In this document: positions 7,280 through 33,899 of the stretch, piece by piece
Position numbering within the stretch: the first letter of the stretch is position 1
How the letters are laid out: the number at the start of each line of letters is the position of its first letter
Notes under the pieces: model-generated
Seen by the model: the letters and a program-made list of their open reading frames with translations, nothing else
Told to the model about the DNA's origin: nothing
The model's database searches: none
Source of the DNA: an uncultured Planctomycetia bacterium
GTDB lineage: Bacteria; Omnitrophota; Gorgyraeia; CAYWPX01
Length of the DNA: 64,000 nucleotides
Reading direction: 5' to 3'
Assembly (NCBI GenBank): GCA_964460615.1
Contig: CAYWPX010000009.1
Coordinates: forward strand, 19,509 to 83,508
Program-made: the position numbers and the translations under genes

Positions 7280-8725
7280 TTAAGTCCCACTTTTTTTAAT
7301 AGGTAAAGTAAAACTAAAACATGCGCCCTTTTCAAACTCGGATTCAGCCCAGATTTTGCCCTTATGCTTTTCAATGATATCCTTGCAAATAGCAAGCCCC
7401 AGACCAGTACCTCCGGACCTCTTATTGAGCTGAATAAATCTATCAAAAAGCTTAGGCATATCCTCTTTCTTTATCCCGAGACCGGTATCTTTGACGCTAA
7501 CCTTGATAAAACCATTATATAGCGATGTGCTGACTTCTATACTTCCGGATTCGGTAAATTTAAGCGAATTGTCTATCAGATTAACAAGAACCTGGGCGAC
7601 TTTGTCATGGTCAAATACTATCTTAGGCAAATTTTTATCGAGTTTAATCACAAAATCCAAATTTTTTTTCTTCACAAGCGATCCCATCATTTCATATATT
7701 TCACTGATAACATCATTTATATCGTTAATTTTCATCCTGAATTCCATTCTTCCTGACTCAAGCTTCTGAAAATCCAGAACTGCATTTACAAGCCTGGCAA
7801 GCCTGTCCATATTTCTATTGGCCAGACTAAGTAAATTCTTCTGCTCCTCATTTATCTCCCCGGTAACTTCATCAAAAACAATATCAATACCTGCCCTAAT
7901 AGCGGTCAGAGGTGTACGAAGTTCGTGAGAAACCATATCAATAAAATCGGCTTTTATCTTAATTGCCTTCTGCAATTCTTCATTTACCTTAGCCAGGTGT
8001 TCCTGATAACTTTTTAATTTCGCTTCTGTCTTTTTACGTTCTTCGATCTCTATCTGCAATTTCCTTAACGCTACTGCCATATCAGCCCGGGTGGCTTCGT
8101 CGCTTGAAAGAAGATTGTTGATCTCGTTTTCTATCGAACGCTTTGAAGGTTTTATGACAAATTCATCATAAGCATTCCCTTTTGAAACAAATTTCGTCTG
8201 AACTGCCCAGCAATTTGTTTTGAATAATAATGAGAAGTACCCTGCCATTTTCCCGGCCAGCATTCCGCTTCCCCATGAGACCCCTAATGCTTTTTGAAAT
8301 TCTCCCTCCCAGGAGTTCCTTATAGAGACAACTGCTGTTTTCTTTATTTTATCAAGTTTTTTAAGTTTCCAAGCGCCCCATCCGGCAACAGCGGCAATAT
8401 TAGCAATGGCTTTAAAGCCTTCCCTAAAATCCTTGTATTGTGAAATTACCTCCCAGTCATCCTTGCAGCTTGCTCGCCCCTGGCTCTGTTGGGCCAGGAA
8501 AAATCTCTTAGTCCCTACCATGGACTGAACTCCTGACATCAGGCCGGCAAGCGAAGAACCTATCCACATCATAATAACCGGTAGATCTTCAAAAGTCGTT
8601 GTGCCCTCTTTAACATTCCACCTAATATTAACATCTGAAACAATAGCCTTATTAATGCCGGTATTTTTGACTTTATATTTATCCAGACTTGGTTTTATAA
8701 TTTTAGAATATTTATTTGCTGCCAT
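7280..8725 (-). CDS. sensor histidine kinase (HisKA + HATPase_c) with ~220-aa N-terminal domain of unknown family, no obvious TM helices
   Basis: H-box SHELRTPLTAI; N, G1 (DTGLGI) and G2 (GGTGLGL) boxes; coiled-coil linker. Confidence 0.85.
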   Translation of the reverse strand: MAANKYSKIIKPSLDKYKVKNTGINKAIVSDVNIRWNVKEGTTTFEDLPVIMMWIGSSLAGLMSGVQSMVGTKRFFLAQQSQGRASCKDDWEVISQYKDFREGFKAIANIAAVAGWGAWKLKKLDKIKKTAVVSIRNSWEGEFQKALGVSWGSGMLAGKMAGYFSLLFKTNCWAVQTKFVSKGNAYDEFVIKPSKRSIENEINNLLSSDEATRADMAVALRKLQIEIEERKKTEAKLKSYQEHLAKVNEELQKAIKIKADFIDMVSHELRTPLTAIRAGIDIVFDEVTGEINEEQKNLLSLANRNMDRLARLVNAVLDFQKLESGRMEFRMKINDINDVISEIYEMMGSLVKKKNLDFVIKLDKNLPKIVFDHDKVAQVLVNLIDNSLKFTESGSIEVSTSLYNGFIKVSVKDTGLGIKKEDMPKLFDRFIQLNKRSGGTGLGLAICKDIIEKHKGKIWAESEFEKGACFSFTLPIKKSGT

Positions 8726-14155: not shown

Positions 14156-15220
14156 CTAATCCTTTTTGACAATTGACTTAACCGCTTCCATTATCTCTAT
14201 GGGAACTGCAATTACGACTGTGTTTGAAGCTGTGGGCCCAAGGCCGTCAATCGTCTGCAACGTCCTAAGCTGCATAGCTCCCGGGGATTTTAGCATTGTC
14301 TCTGCCGCTGCAGCCAGATTTAAAGCTGCCAATTTATCACCTTCCGCTTTTGTAATTGTGGCGCGCTTTTCTCTTTCGGCGGAGGCCTGCCTTGACATCA
14401 TTTTCTTCAATTCTTCGGGCATATCTATATCCTGGATCTTTATTGTAGTTACCTCCAGGCCCCAGTTTTTGCTCTCTTTTTCCACAATACTCTCTATCTC
14501 TTTACCTATCTGCTCACGTTCGGTAAGAAGCTGATCCAACGACATCCCTCCGACAACGTCCCTTAAAGCAGCGAGAGCGTACTGGCTCATAGCATAAGAA
14601 TAATTTTGCACCTCTATAATAGCATCTTCTACTTTTATTACCTTGAAATATACAACTCCGTTAATAGAAACAGGTACATTATCTTTTGTAATAACCTGCT
14701 GTTTTGGTATATCAAGCGTGAGAACCCTTGTATCAACCATTGCCACATTGTCAACGACCGGAATAATGAAAAATAAACCAGGGCCTTTAATTCCTAAGAA
14801 TTTCCCCAATCTCAATACTATCCCTCTTTCCCACTGCGCAGCTATTCTTACAGCCGAAGAGGCCAAAATAGCCAGTAAAAAAGTTATAACAAAAAATAAA
14901 CCTCCTGTAAAATTATTCACCTGAAAAACCCCGAAGCTGAATATCCCTCCAAGTATCATTACAACAAAAAATATTAGTGTCGGTATACCGCTGAACATGA
15001 ACTCCTCCTTTTTTAATTGAACCTTATTTTTGATTTCATCCAATGAAACGGTTTTCAATAGATCCTGAAAACTACTGTTATCATTTAGGGAATTTTTTAA
15101 ATAATTTCTTATTGATTCATCACTTTCAGAAGCTTGTCGATTCTGGGATTTTGTTTTGGCGCTACTAACCGCTGAAATTATAAATATTACGACTATCAAT
15201 ACAAATATTAGGTCAAACAT
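14156..15220 (-). CDS. SPFH/band-7 (stomatin/HflC-like) membrane protein
   Basis: 354 aa. N-terminal TM segments, then an SPFH core (...YFKVIKVEDAIIEVQNYSYAMSQYALAALRDVVG...) and a coiled-coil tail. Confidence 0.8.
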   Translation of the reverse strand: MFDLIFVLIVVIFIISAVSSAKTKSQNRQASESDESIRNYLKNSLNDNSSFQDLLKTVSLDEIKNKVQLKKEEFMFSGIPTLIFFVVMILGGIFSFGVFQVNNFTGGLFFVITFLLAILASSAVRIAAQWERGIVLRLGKFLGIKGPGLFFIIPVVDNVAMVDTRVLTLDIPKQQVITKDNVPVSINGVVYFKVIKVEDAIIEVQNYSYAMSQYALAALRDVVGGMSLDQLLTEREQIGKEIESIVEKESKNWGLEVTTIKIQDIDMPEELKKMMSRQASAEREKRATITKAEGDKLAALNLAAAAETMLKSPGAMQLRTLQTIDGLGPTASNTVVIAVPIEIMEAVKSIVKKD

Positions 15221-15244
15221 ATTATAGCCAGATCCTTTTTAGGC

Positions 15245-16567
15245 TTATTTAGCCAATTTCGCTTCATCAAGCTCAGACATAAGGTACTTAACCTTTGCCA
15301 CTAAAATATAATAATCCTTGGTAAATTTAAGCAGATTGAACTGAGATCTCATATAGTTAAAATTTGAATCAATAATATCGCTCTGATCAACATCGCCTCT
15401 TTGATAAAGTGTAAATGACATATTAAGCGCCTCGTCTGCATCGCTAAACACAGAGCGCTGGCTTGATAATAATTTCTTTGTCTTCTCCAGATTTGCCGTG
15501 GCTTCTTCAAGGTCAAGTCGGATCTCATCCTTTATAAATCTTTCTACGGTCTCTAAGCGCGAATATTCGGACCTTAGCTGTGAAATTTGGGATGAATTAT
15601 CAAACCCGTCAAACAACGGAAGCTTAAAGTTGAGCACCAAAGACCAGTTATACTCATATGACCCGCCTAGATTAAATTTATTTGAGCTTTCGTAAAATGT
15701 GCTTTTCAAGCTTGCTTGGGGAGCATAACGCGAATACGCGGCATTAAGGGCCTGCTTACCGATCTTACTGGAGAGCTCCGCGACTTTTACGGTTAAATTG
15801 GTATTATAAACTTTATTGGACAGATCTTTTATATCATAATTGGTCATATTCTTCTCTTCGGGACAAACCAACTCCCCGATCACTGAAATTGTTTCGGGGC
15901 CGGGGATCATAAGTAATTTTTTTAATCTAGTTTCAAGGGTCTTTTTCTCCTTTTCAAAATTCAGAGAATCGGATTCAAGATTTTCGACCTCGATCTTTGA
16001 TCTCAGGATCTCGTATTTATGTACCTCCCCGGTCTTACTCATCCCCATAAGGTTGGAAGAGTAGCCTTCCATCCTGTTAATTGCCCTGGCGTTTAATTCC
16101 TCGAGTTTTTCATTCAAAAGAAGCTCATAATAAGTATTGATTATATCGTATATGATCTTGTTGCGCTTCTCATAATAAGCCTGCAGCTCTTTTTCAAGTG
16201 AGAGTCGGGCTTTTAAATAGTTGTAATAACTTTCTCCGCCTTTAAAAAGGTCCTGATTGATCTGGATATTCCCAACACTAGGCGCCTGCAAGAATGTCTC
16301 ATCCGCGACTCTCCCGGCCCCCGGAGAATCAGCCGAAATATAATTATAATTAGCATATATTTTCGGTAAAAATGCCGAAAAATTCTGTAATAGGTAGGCC
16401 CTGGCTTTTTTTACGTTTTCTTTGGCGATCTTAAGATCGGTATTTCTCGATAGCCCGGTTTCAATACATGCTTTCAGATTTAAGGGCTCTTTAAACTCCT
16501 CACCGGATACGGAATTAATTTTTAGAACGAATATAAAAACAACAAAAAATAAAAGGATTTTTTTCAT
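15245..16567 (-). CDS. TolC-like outer membrane efflux/channel protein (OEP family)
   Basis: 440 aa. Signal peptide, two tandem OEP-type repeats with coiled-coil and beta signatures. Confidence 0.6.
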   Translation of the reverse strand: MKKILLFFVVFIFVLKINSVSGEEFKEPLNLKACIETGLSRNTDLKIAKENVKKARAYLLQNFSAFLPKIYANYNYISADSPGAGRVADETFLQAPSVGNIQINQDLFKGGESYYNYLKARLSLEKELQAYYEKRNKIIYDIINTYYELLLNEKLEELNARAINRMEGYSSNLMGMSKTGEVHKYEILRSKIEVENLESDSLNFEKEKKTLETRLKKLLMIPGPETISVIGELVCPEEKNMTNYDIKDLSNKVYNTNLTVKVAELSSKIGKQALNAAYSRYAPQASLKSTFYESSNKFNLGGSYEYNWSLVLNFKLPLFDGFDNSSQISQLRSEYSRLETVERFIKDEIRLDLEEATANLEKTKKLLSSQRSVFSDADEALNMSFTLYQRGDVDQSDIIDSNFNYMRSQFNLLKFTKDYYILVAKVKYLMSELDEAKLAK

Positions 16568-16571
16568 ATTT

Positions 16572-17876
16572 TTATCTATACTCCGGCCTGTTGTCCCAAA
16601 CTTTTTTGGGCAAATAATTACTTCTCAAAAATGACATTCTAAAAAATTCAAGAAGATACGCAAACATACTGACCGCCCTCAAAAATAAGCTGTAGAAAAA
16701 AAAGATCGGGGAATATAATACAAACACCCAGTCCCTGCCCGGATCATCCGAAAGAAGAGCCACAATAGTAAATTGGATAAAATTCATAATAGTATAATAC
16801 AACAGCGTTACTATAACTATAAAAGGAAAAATCTGGGGAAAAAATATTGCTATCAAAATAAAATACAAAGGAAAAATGAATAAAAGCACAAGATTAAAAA
16901 AAAGATCCAAAACGCCTGCGATAAAATCACCTATTTTAAACGAATGAAAATCAAGAAGATTTCTGTGTTTTCTTAAATTTATACTCACATAACATCTGTC
17001 CCAACGTATCCTCTGCTTGGCCAGTCTAATCCACGTATCAGGGACTTCTGTCAACGCTATGGCCTTGGGCGCAAACGCAACTTTAAACCCGAGCTTTCTT
17101 GTCTTTATTGTTAAATCAAGGTCCTCGCCTGTCTCCGGGTCAGCCCCTTTCAGGTCAGTCATTACTTCGCGCCTATAGCTCGAAAAAGCACCTGAGGCGA
17201 TCTGAAGCAAATCCGTAAAAGCAAGCCATCTTCTCGAAATACTAATACACATGCCGTACTCAGCGGCCTGAAGGCGCGTAACAAGATTCTCTTTGTCATT
17301 ATACACCTTCAAATTGCCGCTTACTACACCAACCCTCTTATCTCTAAACGGCTTCACGGCTTCGGATATCGCATTACGATGTACCAGAGTATCGCCGTCA
17401 AAACCCATGATAATTTCTCCTTTAGAGAAATTTAAACCATAATTTATAGCTGAGGGCTTTCCCCCTCTTTCGGTTTTACGGAAAAATTTTATCAATCCCT
17501 TAGACTCAAAATTTCTGCAAATTTCGGGAGTATTATCTTCGGATTTATCATCAACAACAATTATTTCAAAGTTCGGGTAGTCATTCTCTAAAAAAGAATT
17601 TATGGTATTCTTTAGCCTTATACCTTCATTGTAAACGGGCAAAATAACACTCACAAAAGGCTTGTATTCTAACGAGCTCTCTTCATCCTTCTTTTCGCTT
17701 CCGAAAATCTCCAAAAAAAGAATTATTGAATTTCCGATATAATAACGCGTGGTATCAAATAATAGCGCCGGTCCAAAAAGAAAGACTATCTCGAATGGAG
17801 AGCGCGACATAACATTATCTATAGAAAATGCTATGTATTCACCGACCAAATTTATAAAATCAAAAATTATATGCAT
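16572..17876 (-). CDS. processive family-2 glycosyltransferase (PgaC/cellulose/hyaluronan-synthase-like), membrane-embedded
   Basis: 434 aa. VILPVYNEG, VVDDKSED, DGDT and the processive-synthase QRIRW motif. One N-terminal and ~4 C-terminal TM helices. Confidence 0.85.
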   Translation of the reverse strand: MHIIFDFINLVGEYIAFSIDNVMSRSPFEIVFLFGPALLFDTTRYYIGNSIILFLEIFGSEKKDEESSLEYKPFVSVILPVYNEGIRLKNTINSFLENDYPNFEIIVVDDKSEDNTPEICRNFESKGLIKFFRKTERGGKPSAINYGLNFSKGEIIMGFDGDTLVHRNAISEAVKPFRDKRVGVVSGNLKVYNDKENLVTRLQAAEYGMCISISRRWLAFTDLLQIASGAFSSYRREVMTDLKGADPETGEDLDLTIKTRKLGFKVAFAPKAIALTEVPDTWIRLAKQRIRWDRCYVSINLRKHRNLLDFHSFKIGDFIAGVLDLFFNLVLLFIFPLYFILIAIFFPQIFPFIVIVTLLYYTIMNFIQFTIVALLSDDPGRDWVFVLYSPIFFFYSLFLRAVSMFAYLLEFFRMSFLRSNYLPKKVWDNRPEYR

Positions 17877-18595
17877 TATTTAAATATTTTACAGTGGACC
17901 GACATGCCAAACTTAAAATATTTATTAAAATCATCTGATGCATCAAGCGGGAATATCCTGACTTTAAAAACTTTCTCCGGTAAATAATAGTACCTTGAAA
18001 ACATTTTGGGCATTTGATCTATCTCGGCATAAACAAACTCTATCTTACCCTTAATTTTTTTGTCTTTAATGCTCGACCAGACCTCGGCCTCCTGCCCCAC
18101 TCTCACGTTATTGATAAAGCGAGCAGGAACAAATGCATCTATCCAATACCGTTTGGGTTTTGTAACACTATAAATCACATCTCCTTTGTTAACTATATCC
18201 CCAACGGATTTATTTTTTTTGACTATCACCATTTCATAGCTTGCCCTTATGTCTTTGGATAATCCTCCGGCTTCGTCAGAAGCTTTGATGAGAGCAATCG
18301 TACTCCCCTCTTCAACCCTTGCGCCTGTTTCAGCATAAAGCTGGCTTATCTTTCCGTCTATAGGGGAAGTAATGCTAGATAGATCCATATTCTCCATTTC
18401 TAGCTGCATTGGACCCATTACTACACCATTAACAAATAAAGTATCCAATGTCAAAAACCTCCAAACAACAAATGGTGTAGCTAAAAATATTATAAAGAAT
18501 ACAAACTTGACTATTTTCGGCAGACCCTTCTTAGGGCTTTGACGTTCGGCTTGAGCCTTATTTACAGTAAACGCCTCTATCTTTCTTAGTCTCAT
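17876..18595 (-). CDS. HlyD-like periplasmic adaptor / membrane-fusion protein (short form)
   Basis: 239 aa. N-terminal TM anchor, biotin-lipoyl-like SPIDGKISQLYAETGARVEEG and a beta-barrel domain. 1-nt overlap with the GT2 gene. Confidence 0.55.
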   Translation of the reverse strand: MRLRKIEAFTVNKAQAERQSPKKGLPKIVKFVFFIIFLATPFVVWRFLTLDTLFVNGVVMGPMQLEMENMDLSSITSPIDGKISQLYAETGARVEEGSTIALIKASDEAGGLSKDIRASYEMVIVKKNKSVGDIVNKGDVIYSVTKPKRYWIDAFVPARFINNVRVGQEAEVWSSIKDKKIKGKIEFVYAEIDQMPKMFSRYYYLPEKVFKVRIFPLDASDDFNKYFKFGMSVHCKIFK

Positions 18596-20049
18596 ATAGT
18601 TTTCCCTGACATATTAATTAGTTTATTTAATAGCTCTTCATCAGTTCTGCCATCCTCAGGGTAAGAAACTGACGATACTTTAACGTTAATATGCTCCCTA
18701 CTGGTATACTCATTAAGCTTTTTATTTATAAAACGTTCCAGCTCCAGGGCCTTAGATTTATCGGCCTCCGGAAGAAGAGTAATTAAAGCGCTCTTGTCGT
18801 AACGGGCGTGTATGTTTATTTTCCAGAGATTCTCCTTTAGAAGGGTCGCTATGTCATTAAGCATCCTCCTGGCTCCACTAAAACCGGCCTTTTTGGTCAA
18901 TTCATCAAAATTGAGGACATTCACCATAACAATGGAAAAATGCTCTTTGAATTTTTCAGCACGGTCTAACTCCTCATCAAGTCTTTTCTTAAAATACCGG
19001 TTACTATATACCTCAACATCAGTATCAAGCAGTATCTGGTCCATGTTCAAATCTATAAATCTCCCCGACTCTACAACACCAGCCGCATCTTCGGTAATAG
19101 GATATTTAAATATATCCTGCCTCATAGCATTATCGATCTCAAATATTTTTTTGCAATTCCTGCATTGAGCGCTTACATCCGGTTCGGTGAACTTTTCTCC
19201 GTTATCATTACATACGAAACTTTGCCCCGGCTTATCATAATCCACCCCTATCTGCTTTAATTCATGCTCGCATTTTGGGCAGATGTACTGCGTCCCCTTT
19301 TTAAATTCTTCTTCAATGCCGGTATAGCCGCACCTGAAATGGTGGATCATTTCAACTATTGATATATTTGCGCTATGGGTAGTCGGACACGTCTCTCTGA
19401 TATTTATATCGTGATGCATGCAATATGGGCATAGAAGGACCCTGTCAAAAAATCTTTTTTCAAAACACCCTTTATTAACCAAAAATTCGATATGATCTAT
19501 TTCGCTTCCGTCATTGACTTTAAAAAAATTTGCGGCAATTGGATAGCCATAACCGCTCAGGGAATTCATATTATATTCCGGGATCAATTCCTTAATGTTA
19601 TTATCCAGCATACTTTTCAGGAAATCCACTCTCAACTTGTCTTCTTTGGATATGACCGGAGGTTGAGTGGTTTTTTTAGCCCTCCTCAAAACAACTTCTA
19701 TCCTGGCTATAAGCTCCTGGGCATCATAGGGTTTGGTTATGTAATCATCTATACCGAATTTAAAAAATTTTACCTTATCTTCCATACCGGATCTCGCGGT
19801 AAGGGCAATGGCAGGAATAGCTGATTTTTTGGCATCGGCATGCAACTTCTGAAGGACTTCAAATCCATCCATCCCGGGCATCATAATATCAAGGAGTATC
19901 AAATCCGGAGTATTGGTATCCGTATAGAGCAGAGCTTCTTTGCCGCTTAAAACACTATGAACATTGAACCCCGCGTTTTCCAATCTCATAGTTAAAAGCC
20001 GGCTAACATCCGGTTCATCATCTACAATAAGAATATTCCCTTTTGCCAT
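18592..20049 (-). CDS. response regulator: REC + Cys-rich (zinc-ribbon-like) middle domain + degenerate GGDEF domain
   Basis: 485 aa. REC motifs (VDDE, LILLDIMMPGMDG, ALTA, KPY). CPYC..C..C..CPKC..C..CRNC cluster. C-terminal GGDEF fold with RYDKSAL replacing RYGGDEF and no RxxD I-site. Confidence 0.75.
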   Translation of the reverse strand: MAKGNILIVDDEPDVSRLLTMRLENAGFNVHSVLSGKEALLYTDTNTPDLILLDIMMPGMDGFEVLQKLHADAKKSAIPAIALTARSGMEDKVKFFKFGIDDYITKPYDAQELIARIEVVLRRAKKTTQPPVISKEDKLRVDFLKSMLDNNIKELIPEYNMNSLSGYGYPIAANFFKVNDGSEIDHIEFLVNKGCFEKRFFDRVLLCPYCMHHDINIRETCPTTHSANISIVEMIHHFRCGYTGIEEEFKKGTQYICPKCEHELKQIGVDYDKPGQSFVCNDNGEKFTEPDVSAQCRNCKKIFEIDNAMRQDIFKYPITEDAAGVVESGRFIDLNMDQILLDTDVEVYSNRYFKKRLDEELDRAEKFKEHFSIVMVNVLNFDELTKKAGFSGARRMLNDIATLLKENLWKINIHARYDKSALITLLPEADKSKALELERFINKKLNEYTSREHINVKVSSVSYPEDGRTDEELLNKLINMSGKTI

Positions 20050-20070
20050 ATTTTTATCCTCTGGTAAATG

Positions 20071-21456
20071 CTATTGTTTTATATTTAATTCTTCCGGATG
20101 GTTTGTATAATATTTTTTCATTTTAATCAAAATATCATCCATTGAAGTGGAAGGTATAAAATTTAAAATTCTTTCAAGCTTCCTCAGATCAGGAATGCGC
20201 TTTCTTATATCCTCAAAATTGGTCCCATAATATTTTTCGTAATCTTCAAATTTTATTTGCGAAGAACTTCCGGTAATATTTATTATACGCTGGGCAAGGT
20301 CACTTATGGTTATATTATTATTACTTCCGAGATTTATCAGCTGACCGTTTGCATCTTTGGAATTAGCAAGTCTTATGATTATCTCTACGGCGTCTTCAAC
20401 ATATGTAAAACACCTGGACTGTTTCCCGTCCCCGTAAATAACAAGCGGTTTATTATTAAAGGCGTTATAAAAGAATCTCGGTATAACCATTCCAAAATTC
20501 CCGACCTGACCCGGGCCTACTATATTAAAAAGCCTTACCACAACAACCGGGAGATTCCTTTCCTTATGATACGCTATCGTGAGAAATTCATCAAGTAATT
20601 TTGAACAAGCATAGCTCCACCTGTTAACATCAGGGGGCCCGATAACGACATCATTATCCTCTCTAAAAGGAAGCTGGTCGGATTTGCCGTAGACTTCGGA
20701 GGTTGAGGTGAGAAAAACCTTGATATGTTTTTGTGAAGCATATTTCAGGACTAACTCAGTCCCGTAAGTATCATTTATTATGGTATCAAGAGGCCTGTCG
20801 ACAACATTTTTAACTCCTACCGTAGCCGCTAAGTGATATATCATATCGACTTTATCTATCAGTTTACTTATAAGCGCTTCATCAGTAACAGATCCTCTCG
20901 TTAAATTAAAATTTTTTAAACCTGCCATATCCTCAATATTTTTTTCTCTGCCCGTAGAAAAATCATCTAATACATAGACGTTATATTTCATTTTTACAAG
21001 CACCCTTGCCAAATGCGAGCCTATAAAACCGGCCCCACCGGTAACAAGAATATTATTAATGGTATTTTTGGCGGCATCCTTTGACCTTCGTAAGACTGCA
21101 TTAACTCTGCTTATGAATTCCTCTGCCTCAAATGGCTTTGTTATATAATCATCCGCTCCCAGATCAAGGCATTTAACCATGTTTGACGACGATTGATCCG
21201 CCGTAAGCATTATAACCGGGATAAAAGCGGTTTTTCTATCAGAGCGGATCTTTGCCAATAGAGTATACCCGTCCATATCAGGCATCTCGATATCCATAAT
21301 GATAATATCGGGGATCTCTTTTTTTAAATATTCCAGGGCATCAATCCCGCTTGCGACTGCGGAAGCAATAAAGCCGGATTTATTTAAGCGCGGCAGAAGC
21401 ACCTTGCCGACTTCCCTTTCATCATCGATTATTAATACTTTTGGTACTGGCGACAT
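20071..21456 (-). CDS. REC domain fused to NAD-dependent sugar-nucleotide epimerase/dehydratase (extended SDR, UDP-glucuronate decarboxylase/UXS-like)
   Basis: 461 aa. N-terminal REC (IDDE, IIIMDIEMPDMDG, MLTA, KPF), then VTGGAGFIGSH Rossmann, catalytic SxS...YACSK (YxxxK). Confidence 0.85.
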   Translation of the reverse strand: MSPVPKVLIIDDEREVGKVLLPRLNKSGFIASAVASGIDALEYLKKEIPDIIIMDIEMPDMDGYTLLAKIRSDRKTAFIPVIMLTADQSSSNMVKCLDLGADDYITKPFEAEEFISRVNAVLRRSKDAAKNTINNILVTGGAGFIGSHLARVLVKMKYNVYVLDDFSTGREKNIEDMAGLKNFNLTRGSVTDEALISKLIDKVDMIYHLAATVGVKNVVDRPLDTIINDTYGTELVLKYASQKHIKVFLTSTSEVYGKSDQLPFREDNDVVIGPPDVNRWSYACSKLLDEFLTIAYHKERNLPVVVVRLFNIVGPGQVGNFGMVIPRFFYNAFNNKPLVIYGDGKQSRCFTYVEDAVEIIIRLANSKDANGQLINLGSNNNITISDLAQRIINITGSSSQIKFEDYEKYYGTNFEDIRKRIPDLRKLERILNFIPSTSMDDILIKMKKYYTNHPEELNIKQ

Positions 21457-21461
21457 ACGTC

Positions 21462-22802
21462 CTATCTCCTATTCTTTCTATCCAGGATGATCCTTCTGAT
21501 TTCAGCCCTGATCTTATCCGGATCGTGACGGACTACTTCTGTTTCATTTGCTATATCGGCTATAACAATACGAGCTTTAGTAATTTTTTTGATTTCGTTG
21601 ATATCATTAATAAAGACGGGGAATTGATTTTTTTTGGAATATTTTTTTACTGAACTCTTGGATAATTTATTTGTATCGTTTATTAATATATAATCCAAGC
21701 TATCCGATTTAAGATATTTTATAATTTCGCTGATATGATTAGCCGCATCAAACCCGTAAGTTTCACCCGGTTTTGTCATAAGATTGCATATATACACCTT
21801 AACTGCGGGCGAATCTATTATAGCATCTCTTATGGCTTTAACTAATAAATTTGTTATAATACTGGTAAACAGATCTCCCGGGCCGATTGTAACCATATCA
21901 GAATTAATGATCGACGAACAAGCGCCTGTATCGGCTTTCGAAGGAGGCTCGTGCCAGCAATCGATGATCTTCAGGGATTTGTCCCGCCCAACCCCAAGAT
22001 CAATATTGCTTTCGCCTTTAATAACTTTACCATTTTCAAATTTTGCACATAAGGTAGGATTTGTTATTGTGGCAGGATTTACTATCCCTTTAATATTAAG
22101 TATGTCGCCCATGGCCCTGACCGCTTCAGGCATCGAGCCGGTAATATCGGATAAGGCAGTGATAAGCAAATTACCTAAGCTATGACCGCTAAGGCCCGGG
22201 GCCTTTTTAAATCTGTACTGCATTACTTTATCCATTAGATCCGGAGTGGTGGATAGAGCGACCAGATTCCTTCTTATGTCTCCCGCCGGGATCCCGCCAA
22301 AAGCCGCCTTAAGCCTTCCCGACGAACCGCCATCATCACTGGTGCTTACTATGGAGGTCAAAAATACATCATCGAGTTCCTTTAACCCCATTAAGAGATT
22401 AAATAATCCCGTCCCTCCCCCAATAGATGAGACCCTGTACTTTTTTTCAAATACTGCTTTGACTTTTAATAGGATCTCCCTGTGGTTAAAAGGCTTGGAC
22501 AAAAAGTCCTTGGAGCCGTATTTTTGAAAATCAAAGACATCCTCCAGGCTTTCGGAGAGAGAAGAAATAAAAAAAGGGATTTTAGAAACTTCAACAATAT
22601 TAAGGTTTTTTTGGAATAATACAGGATTGCTTTTGTAGGAATCTTTATCAAATACTATAATGTCCGGCGAGAAATCGATCAATGCAGATTTCAAAGTTTC
22701 GAAATCAAATACTCTTTTAACCTCTAAAACAAGTTTTGATAGAAAAGGCTTGATATCTTCTACAAACTTATCGTTTCCAATCAATAAAAATCTTTTATTC
22801 AT
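21462..22802 (-). CDS. REC-like receiver domain fused to YvcK/CofD-like (UPF0052) domain
   Basis: 446 aa. N-terminal ~125 aa with receiver pattern (LIGND, IIVFDKD, FFISS, SKPF), then IGGGTGLFNLL, DDGGSSGRL and PAGDIRRNLVALS motifs of the YvcK family. Confidence 0.75.
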   Translation of the reverse strand: MNKRFLLIGNDKFVEDIKPFLSKLVLEVKRVFDFETLKSALIDFSPDIIVFDKDSYKSNPVLFQKNLNIVEVSKIPFFISSLSESLEDVFDFQKYGSKDFLSKPFNHREILLKVKAVFEKKYRVSSIGGGTGLFNLLMGLKELDDVFLTSIVSTSDDGGSSGRLKAAFGGIPAGDIRRNLVALSTTPDLMDKVMQYRFKKAPGLSGHSLGNLLITALSDITGSMPEAVRAMGDILNIKGIVNPATITNPTLCAKFENGKVIKGESNIDLGVGRDKSLKIIDCWHEPPSKADTGACSSIINSDMVTIGPGDLFTSIITNLLVKAIRDAIIDSPAVKVYICNLMTKPGETYGFDAANHISEIIKYLKSDSLDYILINDTNKLSKSSVKKYSKKNQFPVFINDINEIKKITKARIVIADIANETEVVRHDPDKIRAEIRRIILDRKNRR

Positions 22803-22900: not shown

Positions 22901-23079
22901 ACAATTATATCATAGGGCATTGATATTTCAATATAAATATAAATGGCCAATAATGACACAAGCTGTAGCTATTTCAATGCATTCAAATGACCCATTTCGG
23001 TCTAAAAACAAAAAAATATGGCAAAGATGCATAGAAGCAAACAAATACTTTTCTTCCAAAATCTTTGCCATTAAAGCTC

Positions 23080-23190
23080 TTATTTTTTACAGACACATTC
23101 ACTCGCTTTCTTTTTGCATCCGCTGCAAACCCCTTTTTCGATTGGCTTGCCACAATTCTTACACGGTGTACACCCGCAAACTTCGCACAT
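23080..23190 (-). CDS. small Cys-rich peptide (36 aa, 11 Cys), metallothionein-like or precursor-peptide-like
   Basis: MCEVCGCTPCKNCGKPIEKGVCSGCKKKASECVCKK. GGGGGTGA Shine-Dalgarno 6 nt upstream. TATAAT-like -10 ~70 nt upstream. Not in the ORF track (<60 aa). Confidence 0.4.
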   Translation of the reverse strand: MCEVCGCTPCKNCGKPIEKGVCSGCKKKASECVCKK

Positions 23191-23411
23191 GTTAATCACC
23201 CCCGCTCTAAGATCTTTCTATATGGAATTGCCAAAAAAATGTTAAAAATTAATATTAATTATACAGCATATTAAAAAAAAGAAAATTGGCAGATTCTATT
23301 ACTATTTGACTTTTTTCTACCTATAGATAATTTAGAATGTTTTGCATATGCTCTTAATAGGGGTAAGCACATATTCTTAAGATATTGTAAAATTCCATAA
23401 TTTTAGAATCC

Positions 23412-23965
23412 AAAATTAAGAAATTTTAGCAACAATCGCATGGACAAAAAATAAACCTCTTATTTTTTTAAGAGGTTTTAATTGAATTTTGCCCCTCGTT
23501 TTGCCTAAATTGCTTCTTCTCGACGCAATTTACGGCAACTCGGGATTGGTGAGCCGCCCGTGACTCTCCCGACGCAATCCTTTGGATAGGTCGGGATTCC
23601 GACTTACCTGTTTTATGGGTAACGTCGGAAGAACACGGCGTATCTACCAATGAATAAAATTGAAAGACTGAGAGGGTATATGTCCATGCGCTTAAAATAG
23701 TACTAAAATTCCTTAATTTTCAAGAACACAAAATTAAGAAATTTTAGTATTAATCGCATGGACAAAAAATAAACCTCTTATTTTTTTAAGAGGTTTTAAT
23801 TGAATTTTGCCCCTCGTTTTGCCTAAATTGCTTCTTCTCGACGCAATTTACGGCAACTCGGGATTGGTGAGCCGCCCGTGACTCTCCCGACGCAATCCTT
23901 TGGATAGGTCGGGATTCCGACTTACCTGTTTTATGGGTAACGTCGGAAGAACACGGTGTATTTGG
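23412..23965. repeat. Two ~232-bp direct repeats (23412-23643 and 23731-23960, period ~319 bp). Each contains a bidirectional terminator hairpin and the 3'-terminal 20 nt of tRNA-Lys(TTT).
   Basis: Near-identical blocks. tggtgagccgcccgtgactc at 23548-23566 and 23865-23884 equals the tRNA 3' end at 24143-24162. ORFs 23468-23650 and 23786-24001 lie inside the repeats and are likely spurious. Confidence 0.85.
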
Positions 23966-24103
23966 TATTAACGGTATCGGGATTGGGGGGCTATTACGCA
24001 CATGCTCTTAAAGAGAAATGCCGATATTCTTAAGATATTGTAAAAATTCCTTAATTTTAATTACAAAATTAAGGAATTTTTACAATAAGAATATGGACCA
24101 AAA

Positions 24104-24142
24104 TAAAAAATCATTCTTAATTTTAAGAATGATTTTTTATTT
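24104..24142. terminator. bidirectional rho-independent terminator abutting the tRNA-Lys(TTT) 3' end
   Basis: aaaaaatcattcttaa-tttt-aagaatgatttttt: perfect 11-bp stem flanked by A- and T-tracts. Confidence 0.7.
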
Positions 24143-24218
24143 TGGTGAGCCGCCCGTGACTCGAACACGGCACAACCACATTAAAAGTGTGGTGCTCTAC
24201 CTGATGAGCTAGCGGCCC
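24143..24218 (-). tRNA. tRNA-Lys (anticodon TTT), encoded CCA
   Basis: rc reads GGGCCGCTAGCTCATCAGGTAGAGCACCACACTTTTAATGTGGTTGTGCCGTGTTCGAGTCACGGGCGGCTCACCA. Anticodon loop CTTTTAA. Confidence 0.85.
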
Positions 24219-24566
24219 ACGTTAAACTTAAATCTAAATTTCAATACTAGGCAATCTGACTGATGTCGCTTTGTTGATGTCCCAAAAAACTTAAGTTTTT
24301 TGGGATGAATTAGCTCTTGATCCTTAAAAACTCGTTTTTCTGCCTGCTGCCTTAGGGCAGTCAGGCAGTAATCATGATCTAATTCTACGGCCCACGTTAA
24401 ACTTAAATCTAAATTTCAATACTAGGCAATCTGACTGATGTCGCTTTGTTGATGTCCCAAAAAACTTAAGTTTTTTGGGATGAATTAGCTCTTGATCCTT
24501 AAAAACTCGTTTTTCTGCCTGCTGCCTTAGGGCAGTCAGGCAGTAATCATGATCTAATTCTACGGC
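24216..24566. repeat. Tandem 175-bp repeat x2 (+ partial third) between frr and tRNA-Lys(TTT). Each unit carries a perfect 24-bp palindrome cccaaaaaacttaagttttttggg and an imperfect GC hairpin ctgcctgctgcc-ttag-ggcagtcaggcag.
   Basis: Units 24216-24390 and 24391-24565 are near-identical; the unit boundary includes the first nt of the tRNA 5' end (cggccc). Confidence 0.85.
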
Positions 24567-27551: not shown

Positions 27552-29381
27552 TTAAATTTTATTGTCCATGGCATCGGCAAACTGAATATGATAAAGCTTC
27601 TTGTAAAGCCCCCCTTTTTGGACCAAGTCATCATGAATACCCTCTTCAACAATGGTGCCTCTTTCAAGGACTATTATACGGCTGGCATTTTTGACGGTTG
27701 AAAGCCTATGCGCTATGACAAAGACGGTCCTATTCCTTATCAGTTTATCTATTGCGTCCTGAACCAGCTTCTCTGATTCGCTGTCAAGCTGGCTGGTGGC
27801 CTCGTCGAGGATCAATATAGGAGGATTTTTTAAAAGAGCCCTTGCAATCGCAAGCCTCTGTTTTTCACCCCCGGAAAGCCTGAAACCCCTTTCGCCAATC
27901 ATAGTATCGTAACCTTTTGGAAGTTTAGCTATAAAATCATGCGCATTTGCGGTTTTGGCTGCATTTATTATAGCCTCTATGGGATACTCTCTATTGCCAT
28001 ACGAAATATTCGCTGCGATCGTATCGTTGAACAAGAAGGTATCCTGGGTAACTATGCCTATCTGCCTTCTTAACGACTTTAGGTTCACCTCTTTTACATT
28101 AAACCCATCAACCTCCAGAATACCCTCAGTAACATCATAAAACCTCGGTATCAGATTAACCAGCGTAGTCTTGCCGACTCCGCTTGGCCCTACTATGGCA
28201 ATCACCTCACCGGCTTTTACGTTAAGATTTATATTCTTAAGAACCTCTGTTTTATCATATTTGAAACCTACATTTTTAAATCCCACTTCGCCTTTTATTT
28301 TATCAAGAACCCTGGCGTTATCTTTCTCAACTATAGTAGAAACCTCATCTAAAACTTCATATATCCTAGTACTCGCTGCTGTGGCCATCTCTATAGCCCC
28401 GTATATTTTACTTAAGGCCTTAAAAGGCTTCAATAGGAGCAGTATGGACGTAATTATCGTAACCAAGGCGCCTGCGGTAATAGTATTGTTTATAATTGCC
28501 CTCCCGCCGAACCACACAAGGATCGCTATACAGAATATGGACATTGCTTCAGTAAGGGGGTTTATTGCGGTCATCCTTTTTACGGATTTCATGGTAAGTT
28601 TATAAAAAGCCCTATTCTGATCAGCAAATCTCCTTTCCTCTTCCGTCTCATTCGCAAAGGCCTTAACTATCAGGTTTCCTGCTATGGTCTCATATAGGGT
28701 TGTGTTTATATCTGCCATCTTCTCCTGAGTCTGCTGGCTGATCTTTCTAAGGTGTTTGCCAATTCTTATGACCGGGTACATTATTGCGGGAACAAGCGCG
28801 ATGCTGAATAAAATAAGCCACCATGGGATCGAGTAAAAGTACTTAACGCCTATGACAACAACAATATAGGTGATAATATCTATGGGTTGCTTAAAAAGGT
28901 TCGCTACAGAATCAGAAATAGTGTCTCTGACAAGAGTCGCATCATATGTCACGCGGGAAACCAGTTTTCCAGTAGGATTTTTGGAATAATAGTCAAGAGG
29001 AAGGCTTAAGAGTTTCTTATATATCTTATTTTTTAGGTCCCTTATGACCCTTTCGGAAACGTCTCTCATAAGGTATGTCTGCCAAAAAGTAAAAAATTCC
29101 CTTAAAAATAAGGAAATTATCACAAATAGAAGCATAAAATTCAATAGGTCGAGTTTCGGGATATCATTGATCTTATCAATGAAAGCCACGGCGAACTGGG
29201 GGATCTTGATCGAAGAGCTTATCTCTATCTTGCTGTTAGATACAACCCTGTCCACAAGCGGTATTATGGTCCAGAGTGAAATACCGCTAAAAAGCGAACT
29301 CAAGATCATACACAGAACAGCGCTTAAAAATATACCTATATGGGCCCTAAGAAGGCCTATTAACCTAAAATAATCTTTCAT
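27552..29381 (-). CDS. msbA: ABC transporter permease/ATPase fusion, MsbA-like lipid exporter
   Basis: 609 aa. 6-TM domain + Walker A GPSGVGKT, signature LSGGEKQR, Walker B ILILDEATS. Confidence 0.8.
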   Translation of the reverse strand: MKDYFRLIGLLRAHIGIFLSAVLCMILSSLFSGISLWTIIPLVDRVVSNSKIEISSSIKIPQFAVAFIDKINDIPKLDLLNFMLLFVIISLFLREFFTFWQTYLMRDVSERVIRDLKNKIYKKLLSLPLDYYSKNPTGKLVSRVTYDATLVRDTISDSVANLFKQPIDIITYIVVVIGVKYFYSIPWWLILFSIALVPAIMYPVIRIGKHLRKISQQTQEKMADINTTLYETIAGNLIVKAFANETEEERRFADQNRAFYKLTMKSVKRMTAINPLTEAMSIFCIAILVWFGGRAIINNTITAGALVTIITSILLLLKPFKALSKIYGAIEMATAASTRIYEVLDEVSTIVEKDNARVLDKIKGEVGFKNVGFKYDKTEVLKNINLNVKAGEVIAIVGPSGVGKTTLVNLIPRFYDVTEGILEVDGFNVKEVNLKSLRRQIGIVTQDTFLFNDTIAANISYGNREYPIEAIINAAKTANAHDFIAKLPKGYDTMIGERGFRLSGGEKQRLAIARALLKNPPILILDEATSQLDSESEKLVQDAIDKLIRNRTVFVIAHRLSTVKNASRIIVLERGTIVEEGIHDDLVQKGGLYKKLYHIQFADAMDNKI

Positions 29382-32576: not shown

Positions 32577-33899
32577 TTAGGCTGATACGCCAAACATAAG
32601 CTCAGCTTCAACGACAACCTGTCCGTCAACTTTGCCTTTGGCGCTCACTTGGGCAATTCGTGAACGGGCTTTTAAAATTTCCACTTCCATGATCAGCTGA
32701 TCGCCCGGGAGAACCGGTTTTCTGAATTTTGCTTTATCTATGGCCATGAAAAAAGCGAGTTTTCCGATATTCTCAGTTCTTGATAATAAAAGCAGACCTC
32801 CTACCTGAGCCATAGCTTCTATCATAAGTACGCCGGGCATAATAGGATTGCCGGGAAAATGCCCCTGAAAAAAAGGCTCATTCATGGTAACATTCTTAAC
32901 TCCGACAACTCGTTTTTCTTTTTCTATCTCAATGATCTTATCGACAAGTAAAAAAGGATACCTATGAGGAAGAACTCTTCTGATCTCATTAATGTCAATA
33001 GTCCCTTTGGAAAGATCAAGAGGCCTTGGCCCCTCCTTAAGAAGTCCGGATTGAGCTATAATTTTTTCCACCAATTTCATATTAGTATGATGCCCGCTCT
33101 TAACTGCAATAAAATTACCTTTAAGAGGTGCACCTAAAATATAGAGGTCCCCTAACAGGTCCAAGACCTTGTGCCTTACATATTCGTCGTTAAATCTAAG
33201 AGAATTTTTTATAGGCAGGCCATCTTTACCGATAACAAGGTTATTGTCATAATTACCGCCCTTTCCCATCCCTTTAAGCTGTATCTTCTCTACATCATCA
33301 TCAAAACAAAAGGTCCTGGCCGAAGATATCTCTTTTTCAAAGATCGCTTCCCTATTCTTCAGGTCGCCAAAATCAATACTTAAATACTGAGAGCCGACAT
33401 TATTCCTGTTAAAACTCATCAGATATGAGAGTTTAAAAGTATCAGATGGAAAGGCCTGGATAGTGGCCGTCGGGGTGTCTATAATAAAAGGCTCTTTTAT
33501 CTCTAAGATTTTTTTTGGTTCATCAAATTCTTTTTTTCCGGCCTTCTTTAGGGCTTCAAGGATCTCCTTAGAGCTGCCGTCCATTATGGGGAACTCTTCA
33601 GAATCTATCTCAATAATAATATCATCTATGCCAAATGCCCATAAGGATGCCAATAGATGCTCGATAGTGCTCACTCTAGCGCTATCTTTTACCAGATTTG
33701 TCTGCATGGATTCAAGCTTAAGCTTTTCAACATTTAAAAAACTTAAGTCGACCTCAGTCTTACCCGGCAGGTCTACTCTGATGAATTTTATTCCTGAATT
33801 AACCGTAGCAGGGATCAATTTAACGGATACCTTTTTGCCGCTATGTATTCCTATTCCTTTAAGAAATGCTTCATTTAAAATAGTGGCTCTTTTCTCCAT
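32577..33899 (-). CDS. lpxC: bifunctional UDP-3-O-acyl-GlcNAc deacetylase / 3-hydroxyacyl-ACP dehydratase (LpxC-FabZ fusion)
   Basis: 440 aa. N-terminal LpxC fold (HTNMKL region); C-terminal FabZ hot-dog (RYPFLLVDKI..., GHFPG). Confidence 0.9.
   Translation of the reverse strand: MEKRATILNEAFLKGIGIHSGKKVSVKLIPATVNSGIKFIRVDLPGKTEVDLSFLNVEKLKLESMQTNLVKDSARVSTIEHLLASLWAFGIDDIIIEIDSEEFPIMDGSSKEILEALKKAGKKEFDEPKKILEIKEPFIIDTPTATIQAFPSDTFKLSYLMSFNRNNVGSQYLSIDFGDLKNREAIFEKEISSARTFCFDDDVEKIQLKGMGKGGNYDNNLVIGKDGLPIKNSLRFNDEYVRHKVLDLLGDLYILGAPLKGNFIAVKSGHHTNMKLVEKIIAQSGLLKEGPRPLDLSKGTIDINEIRRVLPHRYPFLLVDKIIEIEKEKRVVGVKNVTMNEPFFQGHFPGNPIMPGVLMIEAMAQVGGLLLLSRTENIGKLAFFMAIDKAKFRKPVLPGDQLIMEVEILKARSRIAQVSAKGKVDGQVVVEAELMFGVSA

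Follow-up and report, generated by a model that had tools for sequence, protein, structure and literature searches.

The 64,000-nucleotide stretch of contig CAYWPX010000009.1 analysed here (the window) carries, on its minus strand, four tightly packed genes for a TackOD1-containing response regulator, a short HlyD-like adaptor, a family 2 glycosyltransferase (GT2) synthase, and a TolC-like outer membrane efflux protein (OEP). We propose, with moderate confidence, that they form a self-contained, synthase-dependent exopolysaccharide secretion cassette without a transporter pump. The four genes are as follows:

20049..18592, minus strand: REC-TackOD1-GGDEF response regulator, 485 amino acids (aa)
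18595..17876, minus strand: HlyD-like adaptor, 239 aa
17876..16572, minus strand: GT2 synthase, 434 aa
16567..15245, minus strand: OEP of the TolC family, 440 aa

The end of the regulator gene overlaps the start of the adaptor gene by 4 nt (ATGA), the adaptor stop codon and the GT2 start codon share one base (AAA TAA TG), and 4 nt lie between the GT2 stop codon and the ATG of the OEP gene; all three junction sequences were read directly. The initial annotation had described the adaptor and GT2 open reading frames (ORFs) with their 1-nt overlap, which the TAATG junction confirms, and had correctly placed an OEP-family channel gene 3' of the GT2 gene. The interval that it covered (16572-18595) takes in the adaptor and GT2 genes, but the OEP gene (15245..16567) and the regulator gene lie outside it. 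Likewise, the GT2/HlyD/OEP set that it recognized is conserved and coupled, but it made no mention of the TackOD1 regulator, the most constant partner of the GT2.

Related loci were gathered by exact-protein look-ups and one metagenome scan, and their ORFs were searched with the window proteins; these loci are metagenomic or draft assemblies with ORF calls made in this analysis, and duplicate contigs were counted once (L001=L002=L013 and L016=L017). The order REC-TackOD1-GGDEF, adaptor, GT2, and OEP was found in 10 distinct loci, the window included, and every relative whose GT2 is short (431-437 aa) had it. Identities within the cassette were 42-48% for the adaptor, 38-44% for the OEP, and 56-62% for the GT2. 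The adaptor gene stood 5' of the GT2 gene in all seven loci having upstream sequence, and the OEP gene stood 3' of it in all 10 having downstream sequence. The flanks differed: L001, L012, and L019 had dCache histidine kinases and single REC genes, other loci an SNF transporter or a short-chain dehydrogenase/reductase (SDR), and the window an SPFH gene. No ATP-binding cassette (ABC), resistance-nodulation-division (RND), or major facilitator superfamily (MFS) transporter was found within the cassette in any of the 10 loci, in keeping with the initial annotation, which had seen the synthase in the place of an ABC transporter. Because the order is kept while the flanks vary and no transporter is present, these genes are a dedicated synthase/adaptor/channel module and not a stray efflux pump.

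The nearest homologues of the window proteins are labelled Candidatus Omnitrophota, and the cassette loci probably belong to Omnitrophota. The window also encodes LpxB, LpxC, LpxD, LpxI, and BamA, and its host is therefore a diderm with lipopolysaccharide. When contigs were scanned with the GT2 protein alone, only distant and unrelated GT2s were recovered (27-34% identity; L005-L010).

Synthase, channel, and adaptor

The GT2 protein matched Pfam Glycos_transf_2 (2e-34) and Glyco_tranf_2_3 (2e-29). Its top curated NCBIfam family was PgaC_IcaA (TIGR03937), at 166 bits against a cut-off of 422, and NodC was the third-best match (99 bits). CelA (TIGR03030) gave 45.8 bits against a cut-off of 699, and PRK11498 gave 36.7 bits against a cut-off of 992. 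These family scores exclude the GT2 from the cellulose synthases, and the likeness to tripartite cellulose-synthase systems pointed out in the initial annotation was not borne out for the enzyme itself; cellulose was rejected as the polymer on the same scores (CelA, 46 bits versus 699). The processive character proposed from the QRIRW motif did hold: the protein has D109/D110, D160-G-D162, G250-E-D252, and Q288-R-I-R-W292, residues D160, D252, Q288, and W292 are invariant among 87 relatives, and conservation is complete or nearly so in every one of the motifs D, DxD, GED, and QRxRW. Pfam found no PilZ domain in the GT2, as had been judged by eye for its C-terminus, and the protein stops approximately 20 residues past its last transmembrane (TM) helix.

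A Foldseek search with an AlphaFold2 (AF2) model of the GT2 (pLDDT 95, pTM 0.92) placed the hyaluronan synthases (HAS) CvHAS and XlHAS1 at the top, with TMq values of 0.65-0.71 over 440-468 columns. These matches were full-length, with the C-terminal TM helices aligned, at sequence identities of 16-18%. They were followed by an archaeal minimal cellulose-synthase-like enzyme and then by BcsA and chitin synthase (Chs1). The archaeal mannosyltransferase PcManGT was the best PDB sequence match and came third in the fold search. Going by its model, the GT2 is a membrane-integrated, processive-type synthase-translocase with a GT-A domain on a channel-forming TM bundle. The operon contains no PgaA, PgaB, PgaD, or deacetylase genes, and the GT2 falls below the PgaC equivalog cut-off. 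The HAS-like fold, together with the UDP-glucose dehydrogenase gene that adjoins a nucleotide-sugar SDR gene in L004 and L016, suggests a polymer that derives from glucuronic acid (GlcA) and/or includes N-acetylhexosamine (HexNAc); speculatively, a HexNAc- and/or GlcA-derived product is likelier than cellulose.

The OEP protein matched Pfam OEP (PF02321; 2e-41) with two repeats and has a signal peptide and no lipobox cysteine. It matched the TolC family model TIGR01844 over residues 28-439 at 1e-20, below the subfamily cut-off, and a profile from seven OEP orthologues matched E. coli TolC at 1e-10; the single sequence gave no match in the PDB. By these profile matches, the product of 15245..16567 is a TolC-family outer-membrane factor (OMF).

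The adaptor matched Pfam HlyD_3 (3.5e-18), HlyD_D23 (3e-15), and Biotin_lipoyl_2 (8e-7), and consists of a basic tail of approximately 25 residues (MRLRKIE...) and a single TM helix, followed by lipoyl and beta-barrel domains. In its AF2 model (pLDDT 76), residues 27-50 form a helix and what follows is all beta; approximately 12 residues join the two lipoyl halves, and DSSP assigned no helix in residues 61-157. Its best PDB sequence match was BesA (4KKS; 6e-6), with an alignment unbroken across the lipoyl domain, and Foldseek also placed BesA first (3e-12), alongside ZneB, EmrA, MacA, and MexA (E values from 3e-12 to 1e-6). The AF2 model and the BesA alignment revealed neither an alpha-hairpin nor a membrane-proximal domain in the adaptor. 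An alpha-hairpin normally docks TolC. The earlier description of a short HlyD-like adaptor was thus upheld in its family and its lipoyl and barrel domains, but the hairpin by which such a protein would meet TolC is missing.

A word-based search with the single adaptor sequence returned only two proteins, and a profile was needed to find the family. The profile search recovered only 13 clusters of 237-245 aa (next match at E 2e-9), and every member whose genomic context was read is encoded directly 5' of this GT2. By its lipoyl and barrel domains, which place it in the membrane fusion protein (MFP) superfamily, the adaptor is a minimal MFP-like protein.

TackOD1 regulator and related synthase loci

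The regulator matched Pfam TackOD1 (4e-47), Response_reg (3e-30), and GGDEF (6e-15). Its TackOD1 domain (PF18551; residues 136-317) scored 160.6 bits against a cut-off of 32, with the CxxC and HxxC motifs of a zinc-ribbon pattern kept in the alignment, and its REC domain is canonical. Compared with PleD, the GGEEF motif of the GGDEF domain is replaced by YDKSA and the metal-site DxD by NVL, with loss of the metal-binding Asp, and the domain is degenerate in all nine aligned family members having one. The I-site RxxD is replaced by WKIN and is retained in only two of the nine relatives. With active site and I-site both degenerate, neither cyclase activity nor canonical binding of cyclic di-GMP (c-di-GMP) is expected, and c-di-GMP control through this domain was rejected. 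The regulator is predicted to be a phosphorylation-controlled regulatory subunit of the synthase.

TackOD1 has been described as a zinc-ribbon output domain of response regulators (PMC5847659), and its function has been called obscure, with a link only to thaumarchaeal pilus loci (PMC5847659, PMC4858521). A link between TackOD1 and glycosyltransferases was not found in the searchable literature. The family comprises approximately 2,000 representatives at 50% identity clustering, and a TackOD1 protein adjoined the GT2 in every context examined, in bacteria and archaea. Each of the more distant GT2 relatives looked up (33-40% identity) also adjoined one, as listed below:

L025/26, Thaumarchaeota: TackOD1 beside GT2
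L029, Bathyarchaeia: histidine kinase, REC, REC-TackOD1, GT2
L030, Nitrospinota: TackOD1-GGDEF, GT2, unrelated OEP lipoprotein
L032, Gemmatales: 394-aa MFP, TackOD1, GT2
L031, L028, and L027, Chryseobacterium, Rheinheimera, and a third bacterium: ~670-aa protein, 330-360-aa MFP, TackOD1, GT2

An MFP and/or outer-membrane components were present in the diderm bacteria examined, and none were present in the archaea examined. The MFPs of L031, L028, and L027 have a coiled-coil insert. The Nitrospinota OEP lipoprotein (L030:6340-7917, 525 aa) showed no BLAST-level kinship to the window OEP and is not accompanied by an MFP, as if an OMF had been recruited there independently. The conserved proteins of approximately 670-700 aa that are encoded by the first gene of the other three cassettes lie at the following positions:

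L027:1363-3462
L028:588-2588
L031:965-2980

These proteins matched no Pfam or NCBIfam family and gave no PDB match. An OEP-like nature was considered for them and rejected: one member gave a sub-threshold Pfam match to OEP (20 bits), but hhalign against the OEP profile was negative (probability 0.1%).

Closer to the window are loci with a long GT2 (480-484 aa, 52-57% identity; L003, L004, L016/L017, and L018), which have the REC-TackOD1-GGDEF gene 5' of the GT2 gene and neither the adaptor nor the OEP. Among the three with enough flanking sequence, two (L003 and L016) carry a gene for an outer-membrane barrel directly 5' of the regulator gene:

L003:7622-8485: YaiO-family outer-membrane beta-barrel
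L016:3004-3846: YaiO-family outer-membrane beta-barrel

Both barrel proteins are of 280-287 aa, secreted, and end in Phe; the YaiO family score was 39 bits in L003 (cut-off 32) and 29 bits in L016. This pattern suggests that the export modules are interchangeable, with a YaiO-type barrel in one case and the adaptor plus OEP in the other. The long GT2s have approximately 50 extra N-terminal residues in which M[RK]L[RS][KN] comes first, then a basic linker, and then a TM helix, as in the adaptor; the motif occurred at the N-terminus of 14 of the 604 ORFs from all loci, exclusively adaptors and long GT2s. From the positive-inside rule, we infer a cytoplasmic tail and, beyond the helix, a periplasmic segment, the side on which the adaptor has its lipoyl and barrel domains. 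The shared layout is suggestive of a synthase-bound module of tail and helix that is fused either to the GT2 itself (porin-type) or to periplasmic MFP domains (TolC-type).

In L003, two tandem paralogous long GT2s (482 and 484 aa; L003:10001-12910) follow a single REC-TackOD1-GGDEF gene. The L003 contig is labelled as a Thermoproteota archaeon; however, it encodes LpxB and a sigma-70 factor, and its bin assignment therefore looks wrong.

In the window, the cassette belongs to a longer run of closely spaced minus-strand genes (22802..14156), the remaining features of which are as follows:

22904..22931, minus strand: sigma-70-like promoter match (TTGAAA, 16 nt, TG-TATAAT), 11/12 matches, extended -10
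22802..21462, minus strand: REC-like + YvcK/CofD protein, first gene of the apparent operon
21456..20071, minus strand: REC + SDR nucleotide-sugar enzyme, 461 aa
15220..14156, minus strand: SPFH/Band-7 membrane protein (Pfam Band_7, 2e-40), 24 nt 3' of the OEP gene
After the SPFH gene: archease, RtcB, and SerS genes

The REC-SDR protein matched Pfam Epimerase (2e-51) and Response_reg (2e-29), with human UXS1 as its best PDB match (2e-50), and is probably a UDP-glucuronate-decarboxylase-like enzyme of precursor supply; L003, L004, L012, L016, and L019 have homologues of it linked to the cassette. The product of 21462..22802 (446 aa) matched CofD (2e-80) and the UDP-GlcNAc-binding family YvcK (TIGR01826; 305 bits, cut-off 196), with a weak or degenerate REC domain at its N-terminus (19 bits, below the cut-off); a YvcK/CofD gene also lies 5' of the cassette in L019. 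The operon thus has three consecutive REC proteins, two of which are unusual fusions to metabolic proteins (20071-22802). No histidine kinase gene is present in the operon, and a HisKA/HATPase gene is found at 7280-8725. The SPFH gene may be co-transcribed with the OEP gene; it was not seen 3' of the OEP gene in the other cassette loci and is not a conserved cassette member. The promoter-like site at 22904..22931 is the best in the region and lies approximately 100 nt 5' of the YvcK/CofD gene.

Proposed secretion route and competing explanations

From sequence and gene context, we infer that the three parts assemble physically, that the polymer passes through the OEP, and that TackOD1 regulates the system. 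The GT2 would polymerise a UDP-sugar and thread the growing chain through its own TM channel across the inner membrane, with the energy coming from polymerisation and no transporter being needed; indeed, since no transporter is present, extrusion would have to be driven in this way. With its N-terminal tail and TM helix as an anchor beside the synthase, the adaptor would form a short periplasmic collar of lipoyl and beta-barrel domains above the synthase exit, and a dedicated TolC-like trimer would carry the chain across the outer membrane. The system would be controlled through phosphorylation of the TackOD1 protein at its REC domain and not through c-di-GMP or PilZ. On the cytoplasmic side, the REC-TackOD1 protein, whose GGDEF domain is dead, is predicted to contact the synthase or the tail of the adaptor, and the co-regulated REC-fused UXS-like SDR and YvcK-like proteins may tune precursor supply.

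Two GT2/HlyD/TolC systems have been proposed previously, Xcs for cellulose and Bgs for a mixed-linkage glucan, with tolC an unlinked housekeeping gene in both; reviews describe the model as lacking validation and doubt its coherence because tolC is unlinked (PMC12430437, PMC13438883). In the XcsA/XcsB/TolC model of tripartite cellulose secretion in Thermosynechococcus (Maeda et al. 2018, reviewed in PMC12430437), as in the window, no ABC transporter takes part and the gene for the HlyD-like MFP adjoins the synthase gene, with a 1-nt overlap in the window. However, the Xcs synthase is BcsA-like and c-di-GMP-activated, and the endoglucanase XcsC is part of the system, whereas the window has a HAS/PgaC-like GT2 without PilZ, the OEP within the operon, no glucanase, a hairpin-less adaptor, and a REC-TackOD1 regulator. 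In Sinorhizobium meliloti, the synthesis of a mixed-linkage beta-glucan by BgsA/BgsB genetically requires TolC (PMC13438883), and the adaptor gene lies directly 5' of the synthase gene (bgsBA), as here. BgsA is a c-di-GMP-activated cellulose-synthase homologue that uses a shared, housekeeping tolC encoded elsewhere, whereas the window has a dedicated OEP, a GT2 of another clade, and a predicted phosphorelay instead of c-di-GMP control. The window system would act like these proposed tripartite ones, but each of its parts comes from a lineage other than theirs.

Other synthase-dependent systems resemble the cassette in part. The alginate system Alg8/Alg44/AlgK/AlgE likewise combines a GT2 with a single-pass inner-membrane partner whose periplasmic part resembles an MFP (PMC4436075). 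The cytoplasmic part of Alg44 receives the regulatory signal and has a PilZ domain, and the outer route consists of the AlgE beta-barrel and the tetratricopeptide repeat lipoprotein AlgK, whereas in the window only the short tail of the adaptor is cytoplasmic and a TolC-like channel provides the route across the outer membrane. Among curated families, that of the poly-beta-1,6-GlcNAc systems PgaABCD and IcaADBC scores best with the GT2 and resembles it in size and TM layout, but that score lies far below the cut-off, no PgaA, PgaB, or PgaD homologues are present, and the partner set is another one. Class I HAS of Chlorella virus and Xenopus offer the closest overall fold, with a GT domain and channel TM helices, and a UDP-glucose dehydrogenase is linked in some window-related loci; unlike the window GT2, they have no adaptor, OEP, or TackOD1 partners.

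Among structurally characterised adaptors, BesA is the one that has no alpha-hairpin; a short loop connects its lipoyl halves, and it works with a TolC-like duct in the Borrelia BesABC pump (PMC3807786). It resembles the window adaptor in this short loop in place of a coiled-coil hairpin and is its top sequence and fold match. However, BesA has a membrane-proximal domain, is anchored as a lipoprotein, and serves an RND transporter, whereas the window adaptor is TM-anchored, lacks that domain, and is paired with a glycosyltransferase.

Several observations weigh against a secretion cassette of this kind. With neither hairpin nor membrane-proximal domain, the adaptor could not dock TolC in the canonical way (PMC3807786), and the match in stoichiometry between a small synthase and a trimeric OEP lacks an explanation. 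Near the long GT2 of L004, no outer-membrane partner was detectable. A hidden Markov model of adaptor residues 1-52 did not match the long-GT2 N-termini, and the fusion/fission argument therefore rests on a motif of 5-6 residues and a shared architecture. Promoter and terminator scans gave totals of sites not above the shuffled expectation, so that the promoter at 22904..22931 is only suggestive. Moreover, the cassette and its close homologues are known as sequences alone. On the other side stand the partners found beside TackOD1-GT2 pairs elsewhere, namely the MFPs in Gemmatales, Chryseobacterium, Rheinheimera, and L027 and the OEP lipoprotein in Nitrospinota.

The absent hairpin is also the starting point of a rather unlikely alternative, in which the adaptor is a co-subunit of the synthase, a co-polymerase or periplasmic chain guide like Alg44, BcsB, or PgaD, on which polymerisation depends but which does not dock the OEP, the latter being an independent passive outlet or having another role. 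Besides the hairpin-less AF2 model and its Foldseek matches, this would account for the fusion of the tail and TM helix to the GT2 itself in relatives and for the MFP-like proteins that accompany TackOD1-GT2 in Gemmatales, Chryseobacterium, Rheinheimera, and L027 with no recognisable OEP adjoining, and it has a precedent in Alg44, which contacts Alg8 directly as a co-polymerase (PMC4436075). However, in the Omnitrophota-type cassette the adaptor and OEP are always present together or absent together, and BesA still works with a TolC-like duct without a hairpin (PMC3807786). An improbable reading concerns the product, which could be a short oligosaccharide or glycolipid (NodC-like or PcManGT-like) exported or anchored by the adaptor and OEP. 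The rank of NodC among the curated families, the PcManGT matches in sequence and fold, and the small size of the GT2 fit this idea, but the full-length fold matches, C-terminal TM helices included, are to hyaluronan synthases (TMq ~0.7), QRxRW and the other processive motifs are invariant, and the alternative outer-membrane barrel partner fits polymer export.

We give hardly any credence to a third explanation, that the HlyD-like protein and OEP form ordinary tripartite efflux or type I secretion machinery with an inner-membrane transporter from another locus and that their adjacency to the GT2 is accidental. An ABC exporter gene does lie approximately 9 kb away on the same strand (27552..29381), and Pfam places both the adaptor and the OEP in efflux families. 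However, frr, pyrH, tsf, and rpsB-like genes lie between that gene and the cassette, and it adjoins lpx genes, so that its product looks like MsbA; the adaptor-GT2-OEP order with its overlaps is kept in 10 loci with differing flanks and no transporter, and the whole adaptor family, so far as its context was read, sits directly 5' of this GT2. What was found is a GT2 with its processive motifs and no unrelated pump with independent promoters, the two matters on which the initial annotation had made its interpretation depend.

Beyond the transporter-free secretion cassette itself, we tentatively propose, with somewhat less than even confidence, that TackOD1 is a dedicated regulatory subunit of a large bacterial and archaeal family of HAS/PgaC-like synthases, which in diderms plugs into interchangeable modules of a YaiO barrel, a full-length MFP, or a hairpin-less MFP with a TolC-like channel. 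The Omnitrophota cassette would then be the first single coupled synthase/adaptor/OMF unit and genomic proof of a TolC-type duct driven by a glycosyltransferase. The three parts and their regulator stand in one overlapping cassette in the window, and sister loci swap the adaptor and TolC for a barrel, a natural experiment by which the hand-over model can be put to the test. In this cassette the TolC partner has no alpha-hairpin and no energised transporter takes part, a combination relevant to the recruitment and opening of exit ducts. The TackOD1 domain, in turn, gains a concrete, testable role, and the cultured relatives (Chryseobacterium and Rheinheimera) make genetics feasible.

Other features of the window

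Just 5' of the promoter-like site of the operon lies an ORF of 39 aa with 11 cysteines (MINMCEVCGCTPCKNCGKPIEKGVCSGCKKKASECVCKK; 23080-23199, minus strand), which may encode a peptide of metallothionein-like or zinc-binding type or may have arisen by chance. Farther upstream, a direct-repeat cluster (23371-24562) is situated beside tRNA-Lys(ttt) (24143-24218). It contains two 239-nt repeat copies (23405-23643 and 23723-23961) that are 97% identical, each with an exact 21-nt copy of the tRNA-Lys 3' end and terminator-like hairpins, as well as a 175-nt stretch duplicated perfectly in tandem (24213-24387 / 24388-24562) and three copies of an 85-nt unit. No Rfam family matched the repeats upstream of the operon, and the cluster may represent remnants of tRNA-targeted integration or small RNA genes.

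An LpxC-FabZ(FabA-like) fusion is encoded at 32577-33899 on the minus strand, inside an lpxD / lpxC-fabZ / lpxI / lpxB cluster, and BamA and the MsbA-like ABC exporter are encoded near this cluster.

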